A stretch of DNA of 24,000 nucleotides from assembly GCA_000830295.1 (NCBI GenBank), contig CP010425.1, positions 603,308 to 627,307 of the forward strand, read 5' to 3'. Positions 3,869 through 23,545 of this stretch are shown piece by piece. The DNA comes from an archaeon GW2011_AR15 (lineage in GTDB: Archaea; Nanobdellota; Nanobdellia; Woesearchaeales; GW2011-AR15). Numbering within the stretch: position 1 is the stretch's first letter; every line of letters begins with the position of its first letter. The notes beneath the pieces are model-generated. The model ran no database searches, had not been told where the DNA came from, and saw nothing but the letters and a program-made list of their open reading frames with translations. Position numbers and translations under genes: made by a program.

Positions 3869-6295
3869 CTATCCAAGAATTCTCGCAGCATCAGCTACCT
3901 TATCGCCCTGGTTCAGCCTCATCAGCCTGACGCCCTGGGTGTTCCTTCCTATCACAGAAATGAATTTTGCGCTGGTCCTTATTACCTGGCCGTTGACGCT
4001 GATAAGCATAAGCTCGTCTTCGTCACTAACTGATTTTATGACGATGACCCCGCCGTTCCTTTCATTTGTTTTTATGTTTATGACTCCGCTCCCGCCCCTG
4101 TTAATGAGCCTGTAGTCTGATATGGGGGACCTTTTTCCAAATCCGTTTTCAGTGATTGTGAGCAGGGTCCTGTCTTCCTGGGCAACAACCATCCCTATTA
4201 CTTCATCACCTTTTTTCTTCAATGTTATTCCCCTGACGCCGAAGGAATGCCTGGCCACAGGCCTTACATCAGTCTCATTGAATTTTACAGCCATGCCTTC
4301 TTTTGTTGCCAGTATGAGCTGCTTCTCTCCGTTTGTCTTCACGACGCTTATAACATCATCTCCCTCTCTCAGGTTGATTGCCCAGATTCCTCCCTTCCTG
4401 GGCTTTGAATATGCCCTGATCCTTGTCTTCTTCACTAATCCTCCTGTCGTTGCAAATACAAGATATTCATTATCCTTGAATTCTTTCACGGGAATCACAG
4501 CAGATATTTTCTCGTCCTGCTCCAGCCCCACGAGATTCACTATTGCCTTTCCTTTTGAATACCTTGATGCATCAGGAATCCTGTAGACTTTTGTCCAGTA
4601 AACCCTTCCCTTGTTTGTAAATGTAAGCAGGAATGAGTGCGTGTTTGCAATGAAAAGATGCTCCAGGAAATCCTCTTCTTTTGTCTCTGCTCCCCTTATT
4701 CCCTTGCCTCCCCTTCCCTGCTGCTTGTATTCATCAAGGCTCATCCTTTTTATGTATCCTGAATGGCTTATTGTCACAACAACATCTTCCTCGTCAATAA
4801 GGTCCTCAATATCAAGATCATCTTCATAGGCTATTATTTTTGTCCTTCTCTCATCTCCGTAATTGTCAATAAGTTCCTGCAGCTCTTTCTTTATCAGCCC
4901 AAGCACTTTGCTCTTGTCTGCAAGTATGCCTTCAAGCTCTGCAATAAGGCTGACAAGCCCAGCATGCTCATCCTTTATTTTCTTCTGCTCAAGTGCAGCC
5001 AGCCTCTGAAGCTTCAGATCAAGTATTGCTTTTGCCTGCTCCTCGCTTAGCTGGTAATCCCTCATCAGCATGTCTTTTGCCTCTGCTGCATCGGCAGACT
5101 TCTTTATTTTCTCAACAACAGCATCAATATGCGCCAATGCTACAAGAAGCCCTTCAAGAATATGGGCCCTCTCCGTGGCTTTCCTTAAATCGTATTTTGT
5201 CCTTCTTGTTATTATATTGGTCCTGTGCTCTATGTGATATTCAATAAGATTCTTCAGGTTGAGTGTCTTCGGGATATTATTGACAAGGGCAAGGAACCTT
5301 ATACCATAGCTCGTCTGGAGCCTTGAATGCTTGTAAAGCTGGTTTATTACCACTTCCGGATTTGTATCCTTTTTCAGGGTTATCACGATTCTCATCCCTG
5401 TCCTGTCGCTCTCATCCCTCAGCTCTGATATCTCTGTTATTGTCTTCTTCCTTACAAGGTCGGCAATCTCCTCAAGAAGCAGGGATTTGTTTATCATGTA
5501 GGGGATTTCCTTTACAATAAGCGAGACTCTCCCTTTCTTTTCCTCAGTCTCTATCCTTGCCCTTACCTTGATATTTCCTTTTCCTGTTGCATATGCCTGC
5601 TTTGCCCCGGCATCCCCGCACAGCAGGCCGCCTGTCGGCAGATCAGGGCCTTTTACAACAGCAGCAAGCTCATTAACGGATATCTCGGGATTGTCAATAT
5701 TCATTATTATTGCCCTGCACACATCCTTAAGATTATGCGGGGGTACATTGGTTGCCATTCCGACAGCAATGCCGGATGAGCCGTTCACAAGAAGATTTGG
5801 CACAACGCTCGGAAGTATTTTGGGCTCCTTCAGCGAGCCGTCGAAATTATCCTGCATATCAACTGTTTCCTTTTCAATATCTTTCAGGATCTCAGATGAA
5901 ACCTTCTCAAGCCTCGCCTCAGTATACCTCATGGCAGCGGGATTGTCGCCGTCAATGCTTCCGAAGTTTCCCTGCCCGTTAACAAGGGGATATCTCAGGG
6001 ACCATGGCTGCGCCATCCTCACAAGCGCATCATAGACAGAGGAGTCTCCGTGCGGGTGGTATTTACCAAGCGTCTCTCCCACGATTCTTGCGGATTTCTT
6101 GAAAGGCTTGCCATGCTCCAGGCCGAGCTCCATCATCGTAAACAGGATACGCCTGTGGACAGGCTTTAAGCCGTCCCTCACATCAGGCAGAGCCCTTGAG
6201 ACTATGACAGACATAGCATAATCAAGAAAATCTGCCTTCAGCTCATTTTCAATGATTGCCGGAATAACCCTTTCCTGATTACTTTCTTCTGCCAT
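3869..6295 (-). CDS. gyrA: DNA gyrase subunit A
   Basis: 808 aa, ATG at 6295. Motifs seen: [32 protein letters not shown], the catalytic-Tyr motif [10 protein letters not shown], and the GyrA-box-like QQGRGGKG at the start of the beta-pinwheel C-terminal domain. Confidence 0.95.
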
Positions 6296-11459: not shown

Positions 11460-12332
11460 ATGGTAAAGGCAAATGTCGACAGGATTCTCGAGATTCTCAG
11501 GCAGAAAAAATCTCTCAATATAAAGGATCTTGCATCACAGCTCGGGATAAAGAAAGAGGACGCTGAGAAATCTGCAGAATACCTGGAGCAGGATGGCGTA
11601 GTAAGGATAGAGCACAGGTTCCCGAATACAATTGTCGCGCTTGTAGGTGATGCTTCATCTTTTGGAAATACTGACAGCAGCATGATGCCACCCCTTGACC
11701 TGCAAAAACAACAGGAGACAAAAGAGCAGCCAGCTGGGAAAAAGCCAATGCTCCCCAAGCTTAGCATACCGAAACTGAAGCAGGCAAAGCCTGAAGCAAA
11801 GCAGCCGAAACCAGAACCCGTAAACCAGTTCCCGCAGCCATCATGGCCAGGGCAGAAAGGCCAGAAAAAGGTTGAGTGGCCCGGACTGGAGAATCAGAAG
11901 AAAGCTGAATGGCCGGAAGATATAAAGAAGACAGTAAAAACAGAAGAGAAAAAGCAGGATGTTCCAAAAACACCAAAAAAAGAAGAGCCCGTGATACTTA
12001 AGGATGAAAACCCTCTTGAGCCCGAGACTCCGGGATTCTATATGGCTCCGCCTGATCCTGACGGGGAGCATGTCTACCACTTTGAAGCCTATTATGACTT
12101 TCCTGAAGACATAAAGACGGATTCTGACAAAATCAGTTTTCTTCTCACTGAGATAAATAAAAAAATAGCATCCAGGAACTATGACGGCCTTAACAAGATG
12201 TACAGGGTGCTTTATGACATATACAACAACACAGTAAGCATGAGTCCTAATGAGCTGTACCGGACTGCCGGAATAATCCAGGCGGTCTTTGATAAGATTA
12301 AGAATTTATACATGAAACAGCAGGCAGTTTAA
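11460..12332 (+). CDS. Hypothetical protein: N-terminal winged-helix-like domain, long K/P/E/Q-rich disordered linker, C-terminal helical domain
   Basis: The ATG at 11460 is preceded at about 24-35 nt by ATATATTTATATAC. The N-terminus VDRILEILRQKKSLNIKDLASQLGIKKEDAEKSAEYLEQDGVVRIEH is wHTH-like. Residues of about 65-200 are low complexity, with QKKVEWPG / QKKAEWPE repeats. Confidence 0.6.
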   Translation: MVKANVDRILEILRQKKSLNIKDLASQLGIKKEDAEKSAEYLEQDGVVRIEHRFPNTIVALVGDASSFGNTDSSMMPPLDLQKQQETKEQPAGKKPMLPKLSIPKLKQAKPEAKQPKPEPVNQFPQPSWPGQKGQKKVEWPGLENQKKAEWPEDIKKTVKTEEKKQDVPKTPKKEEPVILKDENPLEPETPGFYMAPPDPDGEHVYHFEAYYDFPEDIKTDSDKISFLLTEINKKIASRNYDGLNKMYRVLYDIYNNTVSMSPNELYRTAGIIQAVFDKIKNLYMKQQAV

Positions 12333-12471: not shown

Positions 12472-12546
<75 letters not shown>

Positions 12547-12560
12547 CTTTTCTTTTGCTC

Positions 12561-13708: not shown

Positions 13709-13859
13709 ACGGTAGTGGTCTAACGGCATGACACGACCCTCCCAACCTTTTAAGAAAAGGTTGGCGAAAACAGGTGGGTTTCTTCACCTTGTTCGTCAAG
13801 CCCACATCAAAAAAAGGGAGAGTGAGGTCGATATCCGGGTTCAATTCCCGGCTACCGTA
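13709..13859 (+). tRNA. tRNA-Gly (anticodon CCC) with an 80-nt intron at or near position 37/38
   Basis: Acceptor ACGGTAG/CTACCGT; D arm GTCT-AACGGCA-TGAC; anticodon stem CGACC...GGTCG; loop CTCCCA|intron|A; variable ATAT; T arm CCGGG-TTCAATT-CCCGG; discriminator A. Mature length is 71 nt. The intron is about 13745-13824, and the junction is ambiguous by 1 nt. Followed by a T-run at 13860-13865. Confidence 0.85.
13745..13824 (+). other. tRNA-Gly intron (80 nt)
   Basis: It is flanked by the two halves of the anticodon stem. It contains a perfect 10-bp hairpin CCAACCTTTT-AAG-AAAAGGTTGG (13742-13764). GGGAG (13816-13820) is complementary to the anticodon-loop CTCCC (13739-13743). Confidence 0.75.
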
Positions 13860-15044: not shown

Positions 15045-15171
15045 GCGGAGGTAGCGAAGTGGCCAAACGTGGCAGACTCAAGAATTTGAGTGATGAGCCG
15101 AGAGGCGATGACATACTATTGGGCCATCTGCTCCCTTAGTGGGTTCGCAGGTTCGAATCCTGTCCTCCGCA
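15045..15171 (+). tRNA. tRNA-Leu (anticodon CAA), class II, with a 43-nt canonical intron
   Basis: Acceptor GCGGAGG/CCTCCGC; D region GCG-AAGTGGCCAAA-CGT; anticodon stem GCAGA...TCTGC; loop CTCAAG|intron|A; 15-nt variable arm TCCCTTAGTGGGTTC; T arm GCAGG-TTCGAAT-CCTGT; discriminator A. Mature length is 84 nt. Followed by TTTTT. Confidence 0.9.
15083..15125 (+). other. tRNA-Leu intron (43 nt, position 37/38, BHB-compatible)
   Basis: The central 4-bp helix TCAA (15078-15081) / TTGG (15119-15122) is flanked by 3-nt bulges GAA (15082-15084) and GCC (15123-15125), adjacent to the anticodon stem. Confidence 0.75.
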
Positions 15172-15707: not shown

Positions 15708-18700
15708 TTAGCTAGTTTCCCTCGTTATCGTGAAACTGTCCACAACATTGCCATTCAGGGTCTTGAATTCCCCTTTTGCCTTTGTTGTATCCCCGCCTAC
15801 GTTAAATGTTATGAACAATGCTCCGTAGTTGAAGTTGCTTACAACATTTGTTGTGCAGGATTTGACCTGCTGGATGCCGTTGGTCATGTGGTAGTTGTTT
15901 GAGAATATGCTTGCCCACCATGTATCTGAGTCATGCAGTGCACAGCTGTAGTTTCCAAGGCTGTTCCCTCCAAGCCCTGAGACGACAGTGAATGATTTTC
16001 CGTCTCCAAGTGTCAGCTGGCCAGGCTCGCCTGCTGTTACTATAGGCCCGTCATCAGGCAGGCTTGTGATTGTCCTTGTCCTGGCATAATTACCATCGTA
16101 TCCTGTAACTATTATAGCGCCTTCATCAAGGCATTTCTGGTAGTATTTTCTTCCCAGAGTGTCTGCATCGAGCTTGCTTCCTACCCTCAGGTCATGGTTG
16201 CTCTTGTGGAATACGCAGATGTTCCATGGCTTGTCTGAGGCTGCGAGCTCTTCTGCTATGAATTCCTCGTGCCCGCTTTCTTCAAATGAAGTGCCTACTC
16301 CGGACATCACAAGCAGAATATCCTGGAATCTGCATGTTCCCTTGTTGCCGAATGCCCCTTCGCAGTCCATATCAACAATCCTGCTGTTCCTTGTATCTAA
16401 GATAACCCTGTAGTTTGCCCAGTCTGCAGCATCACTGGCCCCTACTACGCCGGCATATGCAAAGCCAGGGTCAAGGCTTGTGTTTATCATTGTCTCCCAT
16501 TGTGCGGGAGTTGAGCCCATGCCGAGGTTTCCGGCATGCACTATCATCACAGCGCCTTCCTGCCTTGTGAAATTAAGCAGAGTCTTTGCATTGGCTCCTA
16601 TCCCCTGATTGGCTATGAAGGCAACTTTTATCTCGGCAGGAGGCTCTTCCGGAGTAAATTCGCATTCTGTATCAAGATATTTTTCTCCTGCCTCGCACAA
16701 CAATTCTTTGAACGCATTGCTGTATGCAAGCTGGTTTCTTACAGTCTTTATTGTCTCTGTTTCGCCGCCAAGCGCAAGCCATGGCGAGAATATAATGCCG
16801 TCGAAATTATCCTGTCCGAGTACCCTTTCCCCAACACCAGTAACCCATTCCGCGTCCGGCATATCATGCGTTGCATCCTTGAATACTTTTACAACAGGAA
16901 TTACTTTTACTTCTGAGAACTTGTCCTTTATATCTGCTGCAAGCCCATCCTGGTTGTCAAAGAAATTATCATTTTCTTCATTTGGCAGCCTTTCATTGTC
17001 GATATTGAAAAGTGCTATATCGAAGAACTGCTTATCAGCAGCATTGACAAGCTGTTTTGCGCATGTCAGGTTGCCGAATCCCATTATAACTGGGGTTTCC
17101 TCATTCTTTTTCCTGAATTCATCATACAGCTTTGTAAGGTTGGCTGCATTTGCATCCCAGTTGCAGACGTCGTCTATTATCCAGTAGCCCAATATTGCAT
17201 CATCTGCTATTGCATTCCCGAAATCAACTTTTGTGAAGTCAATCTTATTGTTTTTCCTGAACTTGGTATCATCTAGTTTAAAGAATAGGCCAAGGTCCCC
17301 TGCTTCATCAAGGGCAGCCTCAATCTGCCCCTTTGTCCTGTTATTAAGCCCGACAGCAAATGCGCCAAACCCTTCAATCAGCTCGAAATCGCTTGGCAGG
17401 GCATTGAATATTCCCACTATTGAACCGCTTTCAACAGGCTCCTCATTTTCAGGCACACATTTTTTGTTTACGCATATATCCCCTTCCTTGCAGTCGTCAT
17501 CATCTTCACAGGTATTTTTCATATCCAGCAGATGCTCTATCTGGTTAAGCTTGAAGTACAGCTGGTTGTACCCGTCTATTTCCTGGCTCAGTGTTCCAAG
17601 CACATAGCAGCTTCCGTCATCTCTCTGTGCAAGTTTTGTAAATGTTATTGTACCAGATGATAAGTCTCCGAATGCATCGCACATCTGTGTGTCCCTTGTG
17701 TCAACTGTCCTGTCCAGTGTTGCTGTCTGCGGAAGGTTGACAGACACGCCATCGCATGAGTTCTTTAGTCCGCCGGTGTAGCATGGGATATTGCCCCCGC
17801 CACCGCCTCCTCCACCCCCATTGCTTCCGTTAGTGCCAGGGATAGGAACTGGTGGGTATGGAACACCACCCCCGCCACCCCCAATAGGTGGAACAGGAGC
17901 GCACACATCAGGAGTAGAAGCACACTGATCAGCACAATACGTGCAGTCGCTTGGTGCATCGCAGGTATCAGGCTTTTCATCGCATAAAGCAAGAGCTTCT
18001 TCCCTGTTTTCATCAATTATAAGGCAGCTGTAAGCAACTGCAGCGGCACTATAACCTAGAGTAGTTTCTCCCTCAGTCTCTTCTTCCTCTGAACTGGATG
18101 TAGCTAGGCAGGCTTGCTGATCATTAGACCAATATCCTCCGGCTCCAGTGCATTCAACACTGTTTTCGCATAAACTCAGGTGGGCAGCATCACACTCAAA
18201 AAATGTTGGTTGGTCGCATGAGGAACATCCACGCTCAAAGGCACCCCAGCTAGGGCAATCTCGCCAGCAGATTAAGCCGTCTACACATACATGTTGATTA
18301 TTCTTTGGCCATCCCTCACACCACACTGCACCTTCTCCTGAACAGGTTTCACCATTCTTCATAAAAAACCCATCAGGACAAACACCTTGCTCATCTACAA
18401 CACATTGCCCACTTGACTGGTCACAAGTCTCTCCGTCTTTACTGCAGTCATACCCATACATCTGACCGTTGCTGCAATATGTTGAGGCTGCGCTACTTGA
18501 GCATGAGAAGGCATCATTATTAGTGCATGTTTGTCCTTGCAACAATTCATAATTTCTCCCATCTATTACTGGGTTTCCAGTGATATCAGTAATTGTATTT
18601 CCAGTAACTGCAGTCACCCCCCCCGTTGGAGGTAAATTATTCAGTGGGTTGTTTTCTCCACAGAACTCATCACACTGGTCGCTCTCCTGCCATTTGCCGT

Positions 18701-20693
18701 TGATACAAACCTCGCAACTCTCTCCCTCCTGCTTCAATACGCCTTCAAATGTGTATGGACATACTCCTTCACCAAGATCAAAGCATCTTTCACTTGACGT
18801 CCATTCCAGTGCATATGGACTGTCTTCTTCAGCTCCATCATTTTTCATACACTCCATGCAGCTGCCCCTTATGAAGTCGAGTGCACCTTCATTATCACAG
18901 TAATATTTTGCCTCTACAACACCAATTCCTTCTAAATCTACAACAGCATTTGCCTGCAGGCATGCCTCTGCATTCCCTTCAGCGTTCACTACTTCTATTC
19001 CGAAAGTTACTTTAGTATCAACAATTTCGATTTCAGAAACAGGAGTGGCCGATTTATCACTGGGGATTATATAACACTCATCTCCTTCAGTACATTTATA
19101 TGGTGCTATAGTAGCAGTAATCTTGTCGGTCTTTGCTACGACTTTAGCAACACCCTCCGGTATCTCAACAGCCCTTTCAGTTACTGTTGCTATGGACTCA
19201 GCACTGACACAAGAATTCCCGCCTTTCTTAAATTCTACAGTATATTTGCCTGTCCCCTCAAGCTGCTGATCATCACCAGGAACCCCCCACGATGCAGGAA
19301 ATGGTTCTTCTGGTGTGGTTATAGAGCTGTAATCCTGTGGCTTATATGTTTCATAAAGATAATAATAGGGGTTACAGAGACAGTCATATGTCCATCCCTT
19401 GAGTACACCATTTTCTATAATTTCTCCGGTTCTGGAACAGCTATTTAATGTCCCGATTGGTTTACAGGCTGCCTCAGCATCATCTGCAATTGCTGGATCT
19501 ACAGGTTTGACTTCGGGTGGAGGAAGAGTCTGTCCAGGCTCGGCGTCCAAAGTTACCTCAACAGTAAAATCCTCCTCAGAATAGCCTGCCCTTATTAATG
19601 CAGGTATATCTTCTATTACAGCAGGTTCTGCATCAAAGCATTGTGGCACTGCTCCAATCCCAATCCCTGTCTCAATTTCCTGAACAGTCGTTGTATAGGG
19701 TCTTGATACTGCAGTTGGAGTCCCATACTTAAAATGATCAACCCATATATCCTGGCAGTTGGCACAGTCCTGCATCACGAGTGTAGGAGTTATTATTGTT
19801 GCTGATGCTTCTGCATCATCGCAGTAGCTGACAGTAGCCAGCTGTGAGAAATGTGTTGTATAGGCAGTTATCCTGTTCTTTGCCCTGTCAACTTCTGTCG
19901 GAAGGCCGACCCAGACACCAATTTCATTATCAAAATATCCCAATCTCAGGGAATCCTCTGCAATAGTTATTGGAATGTCCCTGTCGTCATAAACGAATGT
20001 AACTTTTACTGGCTTCGAGAATTCAGCCCCGTGAGGGACTCCTGAGAATGCAAGCATGCCTGCCAGTACGCTGTTGTCAAGCCCGTTGAATCCCCTGTCA
20101 AGCAATTTCAGCCCGACTTCATCAACCTGCTTTCCGTCAACAGTTACTCTTGTTCCTGCAGGGACTTCAAGCACCATTGAGCCGTCAGCAGAAACAACTC
20201 GTGTCACGCTGCCGAAATTCAGCTCCTCTGTGACTTCCCTTGGGAAAGTGTATGTCTGCTCCTTGAAATTTATTACTGTGCTGTCTTTTGTAAATGTAAC
20301 AGGATAATCAATATCAGCTACAAGCGCATCCCTTGTTATCTCAACGCCCACAAACAAATTGCCTTCAGCAACATCAAATCCCTGCTGCCTGAAATTCCTG
20401 AAGCCGTTGAAACAGACAGGAAGGCTGTTCTGCAGATAGCTCTTTATCAGGGGAGTTGAATAGACCATGTGCAGCCCGTATCTCTTTTCTCCCTCGATAA
20501 CAGAGCTCTGCACACACGCTTTTATGAAAGCATCCAGAGAGGCCTGTGTTGCAGGAAGGTTTGCAAGGTCTTCTGATTCCCCTTCAAGTGCACTCTCAAC
20601 ACTGGCGTTCTTGATGATAAAGAAACTGGCGATGATGATTACTATCAATAAACCGATAATTGCAAAAATAGATGCCTGCGACCTCTTCCCCAC
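15708..20693 (-). CDS. Giant (1661 aa) membrane-anchored extracellular Cys-rich protein with C-terminal degenerate metallophosphatase-like domain
   Basis: An uninterrupted 4986-nt ORF. The only start before the N-terminal hydrophobic helix is GTG at 20691-20693, since an in-frame TAG lies 5 codons upstream. N-terminus: MGKRSQASIFAIIGLLIVIIIASFFII. I count 66 Cys in total by hand. Gly/Pro tracts are present. The C-terminal region of about 300 aa aligns by eye with purple acid phosphatase-type metallophosphoesterases. Confidence 0.85.
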   Translation of the reverse strand: MGKRSQASIFAIIGLLIVIIIASFFIIKNASVESALEGESEDLANLPATQASLDAFIKACVQSSVIEGEKRYGLHMVYSTPLIKSYLQNSLPVCFNGFRNFRQQGFDVAEGNLFVGVEITRDALVADIDYPVTFTKDSTVINFKEQTYTFPREVTEELNFGSVTRVVSADGSMVLEVPAGTRVTVDGKQVDEVGLKLLDRGFNGLDNSVLAGMLAFSGVPHGAEFSKPVKVTFVYDDRDIPITIAEDSLRLGYFDNEIGVWVGLPTEVDRAKNRITAYTTHFSQLATVSYCDDAEASATIITPTLVMQDCANCQDIWVDHFKYGTPTAVSRPYTTTVQEIETGIGIGAVPQCFDAEPAVIEDIPALIRAGYSEEDFTVEVTLDAEPGQTLPPPEVKPVDPAIADDAEAACKPIGTLNSCSRTGEIIENGVLKGWTYDCLCNPYYYLYETYKPQDYSSITTPEEPFPASWGVPGDDQQLEGTGKYTVEFKKGGNSCVSAESIATVTERAVEIPEGVAKVVAKTDKITATIAPYKCTEGDECYIIPSDKSATPVSEIEIVDTKVTFGIEVVNAEGNAEACLQANAVVDLEGIGVVEAKYYCDNEGALDFIRGSCMECMKNDGAEEDSPYALEWTSSERCFDLGEGVCPYTFEGVLKQEGESCEVCINGKWQESDQCDEFCGENNPLNNLPPTGGVTAVTGNTITDITGNPVIDGRNYELLQGQTCTNNDAFSCSSSAASTYCSNGQMYGYDCSKDGETCDQSSGQCVVDEQGVCPDGFFMKNGETCSGEGAVWCEGWPKNNQHVCVDGLICWRDCPSWGAFERGCSSCDQPTFFECDAAHLSLCENSVECTGAGGYWSNDQQACLATSSSEEEETEGETTLGYSAAAVAYSCLIIDENREEALALCDEKPDTCDAPSDCTYCADQCASTPDVCAPVPPIGGGGGGVPYPPVPIPGTNGSNGGGGGGGGGNIPCYTGGLKNSCDGVSVNLPQTATLDRTVDTRDTQMCDAFGDLSSGTITFTKLAQRDDGSCYVLGTLSQEIDGYNQLYFKLNQIEHLLDMKNTCEDDDDCKEGDICVNKKCVPENEEPVESGSIVGIFNALPSDFELIEGFGAFAVGLNNRTKGQIEAALDEAGDLGLFFKLDDTKFRKNNKIDFTKVDFGNAIADDAILGYWIIDDVCNWDANAANLTKLYDEFRKKNEETPVIMGFGNLTCAKQLVNAADKQFFDIALFNIDNERLPNEENDNFFDNQDGLAADIKDKFSEVKVIPVVKVFKDATHDMPDAEWVTGVGERVLGQDNFDGIIFSPWLALGGETETIKTVRNQLAYSNAFKELLCEAGEKYLDTECEFTPEEPPAEIKVAFIANQGIGANAKTLLNFTRQEGAVMIVHAGNLGMGSTPAQWETMINTSLDPGFAYAGVVGASDAADWANYRVILDTRNSRIVDMDCEGAFGNKGTCRFQDILLVMSGVGTSFEESGHEEFIAEELAASDKPWNICVFHKSNHDLRVGSKLDADTLGRKYYQKCLDEGAIIVTGYDGNYARTRTITSLPDDGPIVTAGEPGQLTLGDGKSFTVVSGLGGNSLGNYSCALHDSDTWWASIFSNNYHMTNGIQQVKSCTTNVVSNFNYGALFITFNVGGDTTKAKGEFKTLNGNVVDSFTITRETS

Positions 20694-20789
20694 TTTTTTT
20701 CCCTTTATCTAAATTTTTTAATGCAGGGTAGTATATATATTTTATCATCAATCAGAGAGCAAAACTTTATATATGATTATCAGGATTAA

Positions 20790-22127
20790 ATGGTGATGAT
20801 TGAAATCACAGCAGTCGGCGGCTATTCTGAAGTAGGAAAAAACATGACAGCTGTGAAATACAAAGATGATGTTGTGATTCTGGACATGGGGCTTCACATG
20901 GAGACTTATATCAACCTTGAGGATGATGACGATGATGATTCTCACAGCCTGAGGGACCTGACGAACACAGGTGCAGTCCCTGATGATTCTGTTATTGAAA
21001 ATCTTAAGAAAAAAGTTGTTGCGATCGTGCCCAGCCACGGTCATCTGGATCACATAGGAGCAATACCCTTCCTGGCGCAGAATTACAACGCCCCGGTTAT
21101 ATGCACACCATATACAGCAGCAGTGCTCAGGGCAGTAGTAGCGGATAAAAAAATACCCTTCTCAAATGAGATAGTTGCAATGGAATTTGGGAGGAAGATG
21201 AAACTTTCTGATTCAATAACAATCGAATTTGTCAATGTCACGCACAGCATTCCCCATACAGCTATTGTTGTGATACATACCCCTGACGGCAAAGTAGTTT
21301 ATGCAAATGACTTTAAGCTTGATGAAACCCCGACATTCGGAGAAAAGACAGACTACAAAAAGCTGAAAGAATTAAGCGGAAGGAATGTCAAGGTCCTGAT
21401 ACTTGATTCGCTGTATGCAGGTACTGACAGGAAAACTCCTTCTGAAAGCGTTGCAAGAGACATGCTGAAGGAGGTCATGCTGAACACCGACACGAAAGGG
21501 AAAGCAGTGATAATATCAACTTTTTCATCCCACATAGCAAGACTGAAATCAATAGTCGAGTTTGGAAAAAAGATGAAAAGGAAGATAATATTCATGGGCC
21601 GCAGCCTGGCCAAGTATGTGGCTGCTGCTGAAAGCATAGGCCTTGCCAAATTCTCGCCCTCTGTTGAGATCTGCGCCTATAAGAAGCAGATGAAGAAGCC
21701 GCTCATGAAAGTTGAGAAAGACGGAAGGGACAAATACCTTATAGTATGCACAGGCCATCAGGGAGAGCCCACGGCAGTGCTTACCAGGCTGGCAGATGAT
21801 AAAATTGGGTTCAGCCTGCAGAGGAATGACCATGTGATTTTCTCGTGCACAGTAATTCCCACAGAAACCAACAGGAAAAACAGGGCATCCCTTGAAAAAA
21901 GGCTCTTGAGGTATGGTGTAATCATATTCAGGGATGTCCATGAGTCAGGCCATGCCAGCAGGCAGGACCATAAAGAGCTTATTGAACTGCTCCAGCCTGA
22001 GCACATAATACCGGCGCACGCAGGCCATGACAAGACAAAGCACATGATTTCACTGGCTGAAGAGCTCGGCTACAAAAGAAATAAGACAGTGCATGAGATG
22101 AAGGACGGAAAGACAATTATGTTATAG
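20790..22127 (+). CDS. rnj: Ribonuclease J (archaeal beta-CASP metallo-beta-lactamase RNase)
   Basis: N-terminus IEITAVGGYSEVGKNMTAV; MBL motif HGHLDHIG; C-terminal HESGHASRQDH...IPAHAG. 445 aa. The start may instead be ATG 20796 (MIEIT...), which better fits the TATA-like TTTATATA at 20766-20773. Confidence 0.9.
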   Translation: MVMIEITAVGGYSEVGKNMTAVKYKDDVVILDMGLHMETYINLEDDDDDDSHSLRDLTNTGAVPDDSVIENLKKKVVAIVPSHGHLDHIGAIPFLAQNYNAPVICTPYTAAVLRAVVADKKIPFSNEIVAMEFGRKMKLSDSITIEFVNVTHSIPHTAIVVIHTPDGKVVYANDFKLDETPTFGEKTDYKKLKELSGRNVKVLILDSLYAGTDRKTPSESVARDMLKEVMLNTDTKGKAVIISTFSSHIARLKSIVEFGKKMKRKIIFMGRSLAKYVAAAESIGLAKFSPSVEICAYKKQMKKPLMKVEKDGRDKYLIVCTGHQGEPTAVLTRLADDKIGFSLQRNDHVIFSCTVIPTETNRKNRASLEKRLLRYGVIIFRDVHESGHASRQDHKELIELLQPEHIIPAHAGHDKTKHMISLAEELGYKRNKTVHEMKDGKTIML

Positions 22128-22694
22128 TGCAGTTATAATTCCAGCTACCCCTTTCGCAATCATTTCTATTGCAACAGCAGTTACAAACAATCCCATTATC
22201 TTTGAGGCTATGCTGACAATCTTTATGTTGACTTTAGGGACTATCAATGAGAACAGGAAGAAAACTATGCCGACAAGCAGGAATCCTGCGACAACATTCG
22301 ATATAAGTGCAGTAGTCCCCATTTCATAGGATTTTATTGTGAGGAAAGAAATTGTTGCAGGCCCTGTAAGCAAAGGGGTTGCTATAATTGTTGTAATCCC
22401 GTCATTGCCTGTTTCTTCCTCTTCCTCTTCTCCCCGCCTTACCATATCTATTCCGAGAACAAACAGGACAACCCCGCCGGCAACCCTGAAAGAGTCAAGG
22501 GTTATGCCGAACAGGCTGAATAGGAAGGGCCCAATCAGGACCATTATAATGGCTATCACGAAAGCTGCAATTACTGATTTTACTGCAACCATCTTCACAT
22601 CCAGCTTTTCCTTGTAAGCCTGAAGCAAAAAAGGGAAGGATGCAATAGGGTTGAGCAGTACAAACAGCTGCGTTATCAGCGTGAAATCGACCAT
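22122..22694 (-). CDS. MarC-family (UPF0056) integral membrane protein
   Basis: ATG at 22694. N-terminal LFVLLNPIASFPFLL motif, 6 predicted TM helices and a central acidic loop RRGEEEEEETG. 190 aa. The 3' end overlaps rnj by 6 nt (convergent). Confidence 0.8.
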   Translation of the reverse strand: MVDFTLITQLFVLLNPIASFPFLLQAYKEKLDVKMVAVKSVIAAFVIAIIMVLIGPFLFSLFGITLDSFRVAGGVVLFVLGIDMVRRGEEEEEETGNDGITTIIATPLLTGPATISFLTIKSYEMGTTALISNVVAGFLLVGIVFFLFSLIVPKVNIKIVSIASKIMGLFVTAVAIEMIAKGVAGIITAL

Positions 22695-22801
22695 GGTTAA
22701 AATTATTCACGGGGTGTTTATAAGTTTATTGATTGCGCTTTCCTTATCGTAACCTTTATAAATTGTTTCCATATCCAGATGTCCAAGGGGGATAGTTAAA
22801 A

Positions 22802-23545
22802 ATGAAATTAACACTTGCTGATTCAAGACTTCTAAAAGACAGTGTATCAATAATATCAGACCTTGTCACAGAGGCAAGGTTCACATTTGGCAAAGACTCC
22901 ATTGACCTTGTTGCCATGGACCCTGCAAATGTCGCAATGGTAATATTCAAGCTTCTCAGCTCAGGGTTCACTGAATATGATTTGAAGAAAGAAGTCAAGG
23001 TTGCACTCAACCTTAACAACCTGAAGCAGGTCCTGAAAAGAGCCAACCCTGTAGATATAATCACACTTGAGCTTGAGGAAAACAAATTCAAGATAACAAT
23101 AAAGTCAGGCACAACAAGGACATTCTATCTTCCGATAATTGAGCTTGACGAAAAAGAGCAGAAGATTCCCTCTCTGAACTTCCCGCTTTCAATAAAGACA
23201 AGCACAACGCTTCTCAATGAGGCAATTGAGGACGTCTCAATTGTTGCAGAGTCTGTCAAGTTCATTGCAGATGACAAGAAATTCACAGTATCTGCAGAAG
23301 GCGACCTGTCAAAGGCAAAAGTTGAAATCCCTGCAGATGATAATACTGTCATCACAAAGGAGGGCGAGGAAGTCCTCAAGGCAAAATACTCGATTGAATA
23401 CCTGAAGAAGATGATACAGGCCAGCAAGCTCTGCGCTGACGTGTACATAAGATTCAACACAGATTACCCTCTGAGGCTGGAGTACAAGGCAACAGACAAG
23501 CTGATGCTTTCATTCATACTTGCGCCAAGAGTGGATAATGATTAG
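22802..23545 (+). CDS. pcn: DNA polymerase sliding clamp (PCNA)
   Basis: 247 aa. The N-terminus (MKLTLADSRLLKDSVSIISDLVTEARFTFGKDSIDLVAMDPANVAMV) and C-terminus (LSFILAPRVDND) are typical of archaeal PCNA. A TATA-like CTTTATAAATT lies about 40 nt upstream, and a purine-rich AAGGGGGA lies before the ATG. Confidence 0.93.
   Translation: MKLTLADSRLLKDSVSIISDLVTEARFTFGKDSIDLVAMDPANVAMVIFKLLSSGFTEYDLKKEVKVALNLNNLKQVLKRANPVDIITLELEENKFKITIKSGTTRTFYLPIIELDEKEQKIPSLNFPLSIKTSTTLLNEAIEDVSIVAESVKFIADDKKFTVSAEGDLSKAKVEIPADDNTVITKEGEEVLKAKYSIEYLKKMIQASKLCADVYIRFNTDYPLRLEYKATDKLMLSFILAPRVDND

Follow-up and report, generated by a model that had tools for sequence, protein, structure and literature searches.

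The window analysed here, a stretch of 24,000 nucleotides of contig CP010425.1 from the archaeon GW2011_AR15, carries beside the gene for RNase J a giant gene whose 1661-amino-acid (aa) product, labelled P0001, is the subject of this report. The gene downstream of it is convergent and encodes a 150-aa membrane protein, while further neighbours in the window encode MarC, PCNA, a cyclic phosphodiesterase-like protein and 8-oxoguanine glycosylase. We favour, with moderate confidence, the view that the giant product is a modular, membrane-anchored archaeal surface protein which cleaves itself near its anchor, carries a dead phosphatase at the tip of a disulfide-rich stalk and serves as a releasable adhesin or effector scaffold.

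The giant gene, its locus and its relatives

An earlier reading of this DNA from the letters alone (the sequence-only reading) had singled out the gene as the largest in the window, had given it a promoter region of its own, divergent from rnj, and had listed an assembly chimera among the findings that would overturn it. Its rank holds, since no open reading frame (ORF) in the window is longer (Table 1). The product is 100% identical to 'hypothetical protein QT06_C0001G0748 [archaeon GW2011_AR15]', an entry recorded on 14 contigs, one of which is 1.158 Mb long; therefore the gene is neither an assembly chimera nor a chance ORF. Moreover, the order PCNA, MarC, RNase J and giant gene is alike in the window (20790-23545) and at the locus of the relative P0002 (L001, 3797-7922), and MarC, RNase J and a giant gene follow one another in a third archaeal metagenome-assembled genome (MAG; L006, 1828-3745), so that the synteny extends to three genomes. 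On these two grounds, the identical recorded protein and the synteny, the chimera and chance-ORF readings were dropped, and the 1661-aa ORF is confirmed as a genuine, conserved gene. As for the promoter, the RNase J neighbour and a 96-bp spacer with TATA-like runs are in place, and promoter function there is putative. The label of the third MAG, 'uncultured Methanosarcinales', looks doubtful because its gene order is shared with the window and L001. NCBI taxonomy lists archaeon GW2011_AR15 under unclassified Archaea, and a literature search on the organism turned up nothing of relevance; the 2015 Rifle aquifer study reportedly assigned it to Woesearchaeota.

Table 1. Position of the giant gene, its encoded parts and its divergent neighbour in the window
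Feature	Residues (aa)	Window coordinates	Strand	Remarks
Whole gene	1-1661	15708..20693	(-)	1661 codons + stop, GTG start; longest ORF in window
Membrane anchor	1-29	20607..20693	(-)	basic N-terminus + hydrophobic helix, MGKRS-QASIFAIIGLLIVIIIASFFII; from hydropathy
N-domain	45-290	19824..20561	(-)	two helices, beta-sheet aa 107-157, ZU5-like beta-sandwich aa 164-288
H-F-S	281-283	19845..19853	(-)	predicted site of cis-autoproteolysis (F282/S283)
Stalk	291-700	18594..19823	(-)	conserved in family, Cys-containing, mostly beta; aa ~480-680 at pLDDT 80-90
Lineage-specific Cys-rich insert	701-934	17892..18593	(-)	25 Cys in aa 700-965 (265 aa)
Gly/Pro linker	935-968	17790..17891	(-)	PVPPIGGGGGGVPYPPVPIPGTNGSNGGGGGGGGGN
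'Pre-head' domain	969-1060	17514..17789	(-)	small, conserved; DTRD..MCDAFGDL...CYVL...YFKL
Acidic four-Cys knot	1062-1079	17457..17510	(-)	CEDDDDCKEGDICVNKKC
Beta/alpha domain	1091-1345	16659..17423	(-)	predicted TIM-barrel-like, 8 strand-helix units
Pseudo-phosphatase domain	1346-1661	15711..16658	(-)	purple-acid-phosphatase-like metallophosphoesterase fold, metal/catalytic residues lost
AT-rich spacer, 96 bp		20694..20789		between giant gene and RNase J; TATA-like runs aaaatatatata, ttaaaaaattta upstream of GTG
RNase J gene		20790..22127	(+)	identified by Pfam; divergent upstream neighbour of giant gene

Hydropathy reveals one hydrophobic segment in the whole protein, at aa 7-29, and 54 of its 66 Cys fall within aa 291-1079, with Cys pairs that are conserved across the relatives and that we count as a sign of an extracellular, oxidative setting. 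Neither Pfam nor NCBIfam gave a match above threshold for the full-length protein or for six segments of it, phmmer found no match among PDB sequences, and profiles of the family (whole N-half, cleavage-site region and middle domain) returned nothing significant. Most of the layout drawn in the sequence-only reading is borne out by these and the following results: an extracellular, membrane-anchored protein with a single N-terminal helix and many Cys; an N-terminal domain, whose limits now lie at aa ~45-290 (modelled at pLDDT >90, where pLDDT is the predicted local distance difference test score); a Cys-rich core; a Gly/Pro tract and an acidic Cys knot; an unplaced domain at ~1090-1345, which recurs as a conserved module in eight proteins; and a degenerate phosphatase-like C-terminus, recognisable by its homology to PF00149 and its decayed metal ligands. 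That this modular protein is covered by no database family is likewise upheld. Its assertion that the architecture is unrecognisable survives only in part: no family covers the whole, but the N-domain is ZU5/GAIN-like with an HF[S/T] motif, the C-terminus is a pseudoenzyme of purple-acid-phosphatase type, and the overall logic has been published for other proteins.

A word-indexed homolog search returned only three to four relatives, among them P0002, P0003 and one fragment, while an exhaustive phmmer search with a single query made of the three conserved regions joined together gave 2356 matches at E <= 1e-3, of which the best 150 were examined. P0002 (1571 aa) is 33% identical to the window protein over aa 1-700 and 992-1661, and P0003 (1066 aa; locus L002) consists of the N-terminal part followed by FN3. 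Of the 175 proteins compared, 40 contain the N-domain, which falls into at least 40 clusters at 50% identity and occupies residues ~40-320 in complete members (it lies nearer the N-terminus in those truncated at that end), and 139 contain the C-terminal phosphoesterase-type domain. The named sources of family members are archaeal MAGs, one GH25-headed member coming from a Candidatus Woesearchaeota MAG.

Anchor and membrane-proximal domain

Residues 1-29 form a membrane-anchoring helix with a basic N-terminus, and the AlphaFold model of aa 1-700, built from a 32-sequence alignment, contains a single long helix at aa 4-43. The N-terminus reads MGKRS-QASIFAIIGLL; across the family a few residues precede the pattern [KR]-[GSA]-Q-x-[ST]-[ILV]-[FY]-x-[IL]-[IV] and ~20 hydrophobic residues follow it. 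The part [KR][GSA]-Q-x-[ST]-[ILV]-[FY] is kept in ~30 of the 32 members whose N-terminus is apparently complete, with the classic KGQ or RGQ in ten. Class III signals of DUF361 type have the motif QXSXEXXXL with Q at +1, and class III signals in archaea occur on many non-pilin extracellular proteins (PMC2910488). The Q at +1 and the S at +3 of the window protein agree with this motif, while position +5 is F/Y, not Glu, and the residue at -1 is Ser (KRS, then Q) instead of the canonical Gly/Ala of prepilin sites. Pfam gave sub-threshold matches to Tad/TadF pilin-like models for four of ten N-termini and none to PF04021. By its residues, then, the N-terminus may resemble an archaeal class III (prepilin-type) signal, the match being incomplete, and the odds that the anchor undergoes prepilin-type processing are roughly even.

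The same residues could instead belong to a giant pilin-like protein, i.e., a minor pilin or tip adhesin that prepilin peptidase would cut before Gln5, after which the helix would join or prime a type IV pilus-like fibre and the stalk and head would sit on a filament, not on the membrane. The motif [KR][GSA]-Q-x-[ST] with ~22 hydrophobic residues behind it in nearly all full-length members, its likeness to the DUF361 signal (class III signals in archaea not being confined to pilins), the weak Tad/TadF matches and a weak PDB match of the N-terminal helix to a 'fimbrial protein' (E 1.2) argue for such a role, but every one of these database matches is sub-threshold, the residues at -1 and +5 deviate as described, and a major pilin subunit of 180 kDa would be unprecedented. 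Furthermore, neither the window nor the surroundings of the homologs contain genes for pilus assembly, and no prepilin peptidase gene is found within the window, which is the part of the genome covered. We regard a pilin-like role as unlikely, if deserving of some weight; it is compatible with self-cleavage, as both can coexist in one protein.

The case for a self-cleaving surface protein rests on the N-domain, which follows the anchor and is modelled at pLDDT 90-98 over aa 45-300, its two helices carrying a conserved Cys60-Cys94 pair. The best PDB matches of this domain in Foldseek were the ZU5A-ZU5B domains of ankyrin (3ud1/3ud2; E 4e-3 to 7e-3, prob 0.98-1.0). DSSP assigns strands to aa 274-281 and 284-288, which places HFS in the turn joining the last two strands of the sandwich, and two hallmarks of the autoproteolytic superfamily were found, namely a ZU5/GAIN-B-like beta-sandwich and a His-hydrophobic-Ser/Thr motif in the turn preceding the last strand. 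Among 40 members at 28-50% identity the His is kept in 39 and the Phe in 39 (Leu in one), while the third position is Ser or Thr in 39 of 39 (20 Ser, 19 Thr); behind the motif come x-[FY]-[GA]-x-V and then the invariant Cys291. Because only Ser or Thr occurs at this position, next to strict His and Phe, at so low an identity, Ser283 is read as a nucleophile and not as a structural residue. From the model and this conservation we infer that the N-domain is a ZU5/GAIN-like self-cleaving module. The Pfam models ZU5, GPS, GAIN, FIIND and Nucleoporin2 gave no match at E <= 10 to aa 36-290 or to 28 sub-domain sequences.

Many ZU5 domains do not cleave themselves, those of ankyrin (the best structural match) included, and the protein is large, Cys-rich and anchored. 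This would suit a permanently intact structural surface protein, associated with an S-layer or acting as an envelope scaffold, in which HF[S/T] is kept for folding and nothing is released. The restriction to Ser/Thr beside strict His and Phe speaks against such a protein. In addition, the swapping of heads among paralogs is ill-suited to a lattice-forming protein, and the family is rare and patchy (a scan of a genome collection with one peptide pattern found 3 loci among 185,579 species genomes, a count by which phyletic distribution is poorly sampled). We therefore hold a permanently intact protein to be rather improbable, and retain self-cleavage near the anchor as the preferred reading.

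A side result of the profile searches concerns an axonemal protein. The PDB chain 8glv_AE (IC97/Casc1) gave a non-significant alignment to the family profile (E 0.62; '...WWDE..W...TTHLAPLALV') that mirrors the cleavage-site motif of the family, 'AWWDE..IW....D....F.FHTTHLAPLALVMR', with Ala replacing Ser/Thr. This may hint that axonemal IC97/Casc1 holds an uncleaved ZU5/GAIN-like sandwich.

Stalk, head and interchangeable heads of the family

Beyond the N-domain, the ectodomain was shown to consist of a disulfide-rich stalk, a Gly/Pro hinge, the pre-head domain, the Cys knot and a head made of a beta/alpha-barrel-like part and a part with the purple-acid-phosphatase fold. The insert at aa 700-965 contains no internal repeats and has no counterpart among the 175 relatives compared. 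The pre-head domain, modelled at low confidence (pLDDT 29-62) and unmatched in Pfam, also stands before the GH25 and C39-like heads of relatives. The Cys knot has sub-threshold Pfam matches to DUF7107, Dickkopf and EB (E 0.002-0.009), DUF7107 reaching E 2.7e-9 in two relatives, and it is repeated many times in the relatives P0005 and P0052. At the position of the insert, P0002 (gene at L001 8001-12716) has at aa ~697-775 a strongly hydrophobic, Gly/Ala/Ile-rich segment of ~75 aa together with a Ser/Pro-rich stretch; this segment could span the membrane several times and thereby alter the topology of all that follows it in the chain.

The C-terminal domain (aa 1346-1661) is clearly of metallophosphoesterase descent. 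It aligned with 24 PF00149 proteins at E 1e-30 to 1e-70, with 31-41% identity to secreted bacterial ones, and Foldseek matched its model (pLDDT >90) to purple acid phytase 6gja (E 1.7e-8) and to PhoD. The PF00149 model itself did not match the window protein, either at E <= 1 over the full length or at E <= 10 over the segment. Active relatives carry the motif set GDxG / GDxxY / GNH[DE] / WHKN (xxxH) / GHxH (GHEH), and DDYNHHHH occupies the eight ligand and catalytic positions in 117 of 139 homologs, whereas the window protein reads NNMASHYG there: both metal-binding Asp have become Asn, the Tyr, the Asn and the catalytic His are lost, GHxH has turned into GYDG, and H1496 alone is kept. The window protein shares its losses with a clade of ten proteins (P0001, P0002, P0005, P0030, P0031, P0032, P0048, P0050, P0052 and P0064) in which both metal Asp are replaced by Asn wherever the sequence extends over that part, and the first His of GHxH is replaced by Tyr (by Phe in one). 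Judged by these shared replacements, the domain is a stable pseudoenzyme clade and no decaying gene.

An active surface phosphatase or phosphodiesterase that scavenges phosphate, as in Bacillus subtilis YfkN, would suit this lineage, and YfkN offers a precedent for phosphoesterases joined to a self-cleaving anchor. With seven of the eight catalytic or metal positions replaced in the window protein, the same pattern of loss throughout the clade and PF00149 failing even at E = 1, such an activity is highly improbable; the reading NNMASHYG for DDYNHHHH largely refutes it. The tip of the preferred self-cleaving protein is thus best called a dead phosphatase.

In front of the pseudo-phosphatase lies the beta/alpha domain, modelled at pLDDT 55-90 with alternating strands and helices and matched weakly in Foldseek to TIM barrels, GH158 among them (E about 4e-3 to 2e-2); it had no match in Pfam or among PDB sequences. 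It occurs in P0001, P0002, P0005, P0030, P0031, P0032, P0052 and P0064, and in all eight the degenerate phosphoesterase follows, so that the pseudo-phosphatase head module is a property of eight family members; P0048 (393 aa) and P0050 (272 aa), the other members of the degenerate clade, are too short to hold the beta/alpha domain. Alignment of the eight leaves G1094, Y1170, C1177, Y1190, C1211, D1225, F1229 and G1299 invariant. No acid is conserved at the predicted ends of strands 4 and 7, where a glycosidase of GH-A type would have one.

Other relatives bear other heads on the same scaffold. In the 32 relatives scanned, Pfam identified GH25 in five, Peptidase_C39_2 in two and fn3 in one, with DUF7107 in two, while an HExxH motif (a possible metallopeptidase) and long Cys-rich repeat regions were seen by eye only. 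Several of the genes stand in arrays: P0002 is followed immediately by its paralog P0030 in tandem (L001, 8001-16830), P0037 lies two genes upstream of P0003 with an S8 peptidase in between (L002, 1741-11201), and a 794-aa family member lies upstream of P0031 (L007, 31-9783), whereas the window holds one family copy only. The family is a constant anchor, a module predicted to cleave itself and a stalk with interchangeable heads, often in paralog arrays, a plan that matches polymorphic surface effectors. A DsbB-family gene (17250-17765, minus strand) without counterpart in the window follows the two giant genes of L001 at a distance of about 420 nt; its position is consistent with oxidative folding of Cys-rich proteins.

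This build also invites comparison with polymorphic toxins, and the product could be a contact-dependent toxin or lytic effector in which the beta/alpha-barrel is active, e.g., as a glycosidase on a polymer of the host envelope, and the dead phosphatase is a targeting module. The constant N-terminal part with variable C-terminal enzymes (GH25, C39-like, and HExxH by eye) among paralogs in gene arrays is indeed present, as are eight predicted strand-helix units with weak TIM-barrel matches including GH158 and, in several members, an acidic pair that ends predicted strand 4 (YWIIDD). On the other hand, D1225 is the sole invariant acid across the eight members, with none conserved at the ends of predicted strands 4 and 7, the domain has no Pfam or PDB sequence match and its model is of moderate confidence. 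A toxin domain with an adjacent immunity gene is lacking as well: the head is a pseudoenzyme plus a beta/alpha domain of no assigned family, and the genes adjoining the giant gene, for the convergent 150-aa membrane protein and RNase J, include no immunity gene candidate. We judge a toxin of this kind to be improbable, and return to the releasable adhesin or effector scaffold below.

Elsewhere in the window, two plus-strand segments at 13709-13859 and 15045-15171 (151 and 127 nt) match the Rfam tRNA model over its full length (45.9 and 44.3 bits) and went unreported by ARAGORN in default mode; both are probably archaeal tRNA genes with introns, and they flank the genes for the cyclic phosphodiesterase and the membrane protein. 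A tRNA-Arg(CCT) lies at 12472-12547 on the plus strand and is overlapped by spurious minus-strand ORFs of the ORF list. The minus strand at 3869-6295 encodes a bacterial-type DNA gyrase A, with a full DNA_topoisoIV domain and six GyrA C-terminal repeats, in a small archaeal genome, and the plus strand at 11460-12332 encodes a 290-aa protein with a winged-helix-like N-terminal region (weak DUF4423 match) followed by a long low-complexity part rich in Lys, Pro, Glu and Gln.

Proposed mechanism and comparison with known systems

In the mechanism that we propose, an N-to-O acyl shift in the membrane-proximal ZU5/GAIN-like sandwich would break the bond from F282 to S283 in His281-Phe282-Ser283, leaving one fragment that ends in ...ITAYTTHF and another with the neo-N-terminus SQLATVSYC... 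(peptide SQLATVSYCDDAEASATIITPTLVMQDCANCQDIWVDHFK). Residues 1-282 would stay in the membrane and the strand aa 283-289 would remain inserted in the sandwich, the two pieces being joined non-covalently, until force or contact pulls that strand out and sheds the ectodomain. Because its phosphatase site is dead, the most likely task of the head is to bind a ligand, carried by another cell or a polymer, and not to hydrolyse phosphate esters. It is plausible that the protein takes part in contacts with other cells or a host, since relatives in which anchor, N-domain and stalk are the same bear GH25 muramidase or C39-like peptidase heads; and as this constant part carries GH25, C39-like or FN3 heads, the scaffold would therefore be a general display-and-release platform with partly bacterial partners.

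Several points weigh against this proposal: i) Self-cleavage, non-covalent retention and release are predictions for every member of this family; ii) The N-domain has no sequence-profile link to ZU5, GPS, GAIN or FIIND and no PDB sequence match; iii) The N-terminal signal departs from prepilin sites at -1 and +5, as given above; iv) The ligand of the head is hypothetical, and the beta/alpha domain may yet prove to be enzymatic; v) The order of parts (N-terminal helix, cleavage module, ectodomain) is the inverse of that in almost all MAIN proteins.

Giant surface proteins annotated as 'hypothetical' are commonly suspected of serving DPANN-type archaea with genomes of ~1 Mb in the little-understood recognition and holding of other cells. 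For one of these a concrete model is gained here, with a predicted cleavage site between F282 and S283, an anchor motif, a scaffold that recurs in at least 40 sequence clusters and heads that include hydrolases of the bacterial wall. It would extend microbial GAIN-like release to an archaeal family of opposite topology that current domain databases miss, and it adds pseudoenzymes of purple-acid-phosphatase type that make up an entire clade and have apparently been put to use as surface modules. More speculatively, and doubtful as it stands, DPANN/Woesearchaeota-type archaea might own 'inverted' GAIN-like, mechano-releasable weapons or adhesins of their own class, anchored by a pilin-type signal, whereby contact with host or prey tears off the stalk, the dead phosphatase plus barrel recognises a phosphorylated envelope polymer and the lysozyme and peptidase heads of sister proteins breach bacterial walls. 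If true, the ways in which ultra-small archaea fasten on to other cells, bacteria among them, and exploit these would become accessible at the molecular level.

Among the nearest published systems is that of the MAIN domains, whose HX(S/T) motif, exemplified by HFS, is cut between F and S as determined by Edman degradation; replacement of S by A abolishes cleavage and S to T restores it, the products stay associated, and nearly all MAIN proteins consist of a signal peptide, an ectodomain, MAIN and a C-terminal wall anchor (Brogan & Rudner, bioRxiv 10.64898/2026.05.12.724683). Both groups are large, envelope-tethered proteins with a beta-sandwich that presents H-hydrophobic-S/T in a beta-turn and with an adhesive or enzymatic ectodomain, B. 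subtilis YfkN carrying metallophosphoesterases there. Besides the inverted order, the window protein differs in being archaeal, without a cell wall or sortase, in its inactivated phosphatase and in a cleavage that is predicted only, and no sequence-level link joins the two.

The ZU5, GPS and Nup98 domains have been united as one autopeptidase superfamily; in surface proteins and polymorphic toxins of large size it lies at the N-terminal base (Zhang, Aravind et al. 2012, PMC3482391). Our family resembles these in having an N-terminal ZU5-like module at the base, variable C-terminal domains and a proposed release from the surface. The published proteins have features that are missing here, namely RHS repeats, export of SpvB/TcdB type and nucleases or peptidases as toxins, paired with immunity genes; their motif is a C-terminal CxH, in place of which the window family has HF[S/T] and then Cys eight residues later.

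Among eukaryotic autoproteolytic domains (ZU5, FIIND, GAIN-GPS and Nup98, as in PIDD, NLRP1, CARD8 and adhesion GPCRs), ZU5 provides the best fold match, and the motif HF|S, the bar marking the cut, corresponds to that of PIDD and Nup98. Those domains act in cytoplasmic or metazoan signalling, their Pfam models are unmatched here, and the window family lacks the disulfides that precede the His in GPS. The family pattern [ST]-x-[FY]-[GA]-x-V after the predicted cut resembles what we take to be the 'Stachel' of adhesion GPCRs, T-x-F-A-V-L. With purple acid phosphatases (PF00149; wheat purple acid phytase 6gja, PhoD 2yeq) the window domain shares the fold and clear sequence homology, whereas it is without the metal site and is placed behind a beta/alpha domain that active relatives lack.

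Archaea deploy secreted peptidoglycan hydrolases, GH25 muramidases included, against bacteria (PLoS Biol 2025, PMC12352652), and sister proteins of the window family carry GH25 on the same scaffold (5/32), in keeping with such attacks on bacterial walls. The window protein itself is without a hydrolase head; the published set was drawn from Sec/Tat signals and Pfam architectures and does not mention 'pilin', while the anchor/ZU5-like scaffold has no Pfam model. Taken together, large microbial surface proteins with self-cleaving ZU5/GAIN/MAIN modules have been described before; the novelty lies in a divergent archaeal family undetected by the databases, with the anchor N-terminal of the predicted cleavage site, a possible prepilin-type signal and, in this protein, a pseudoenzyme head.

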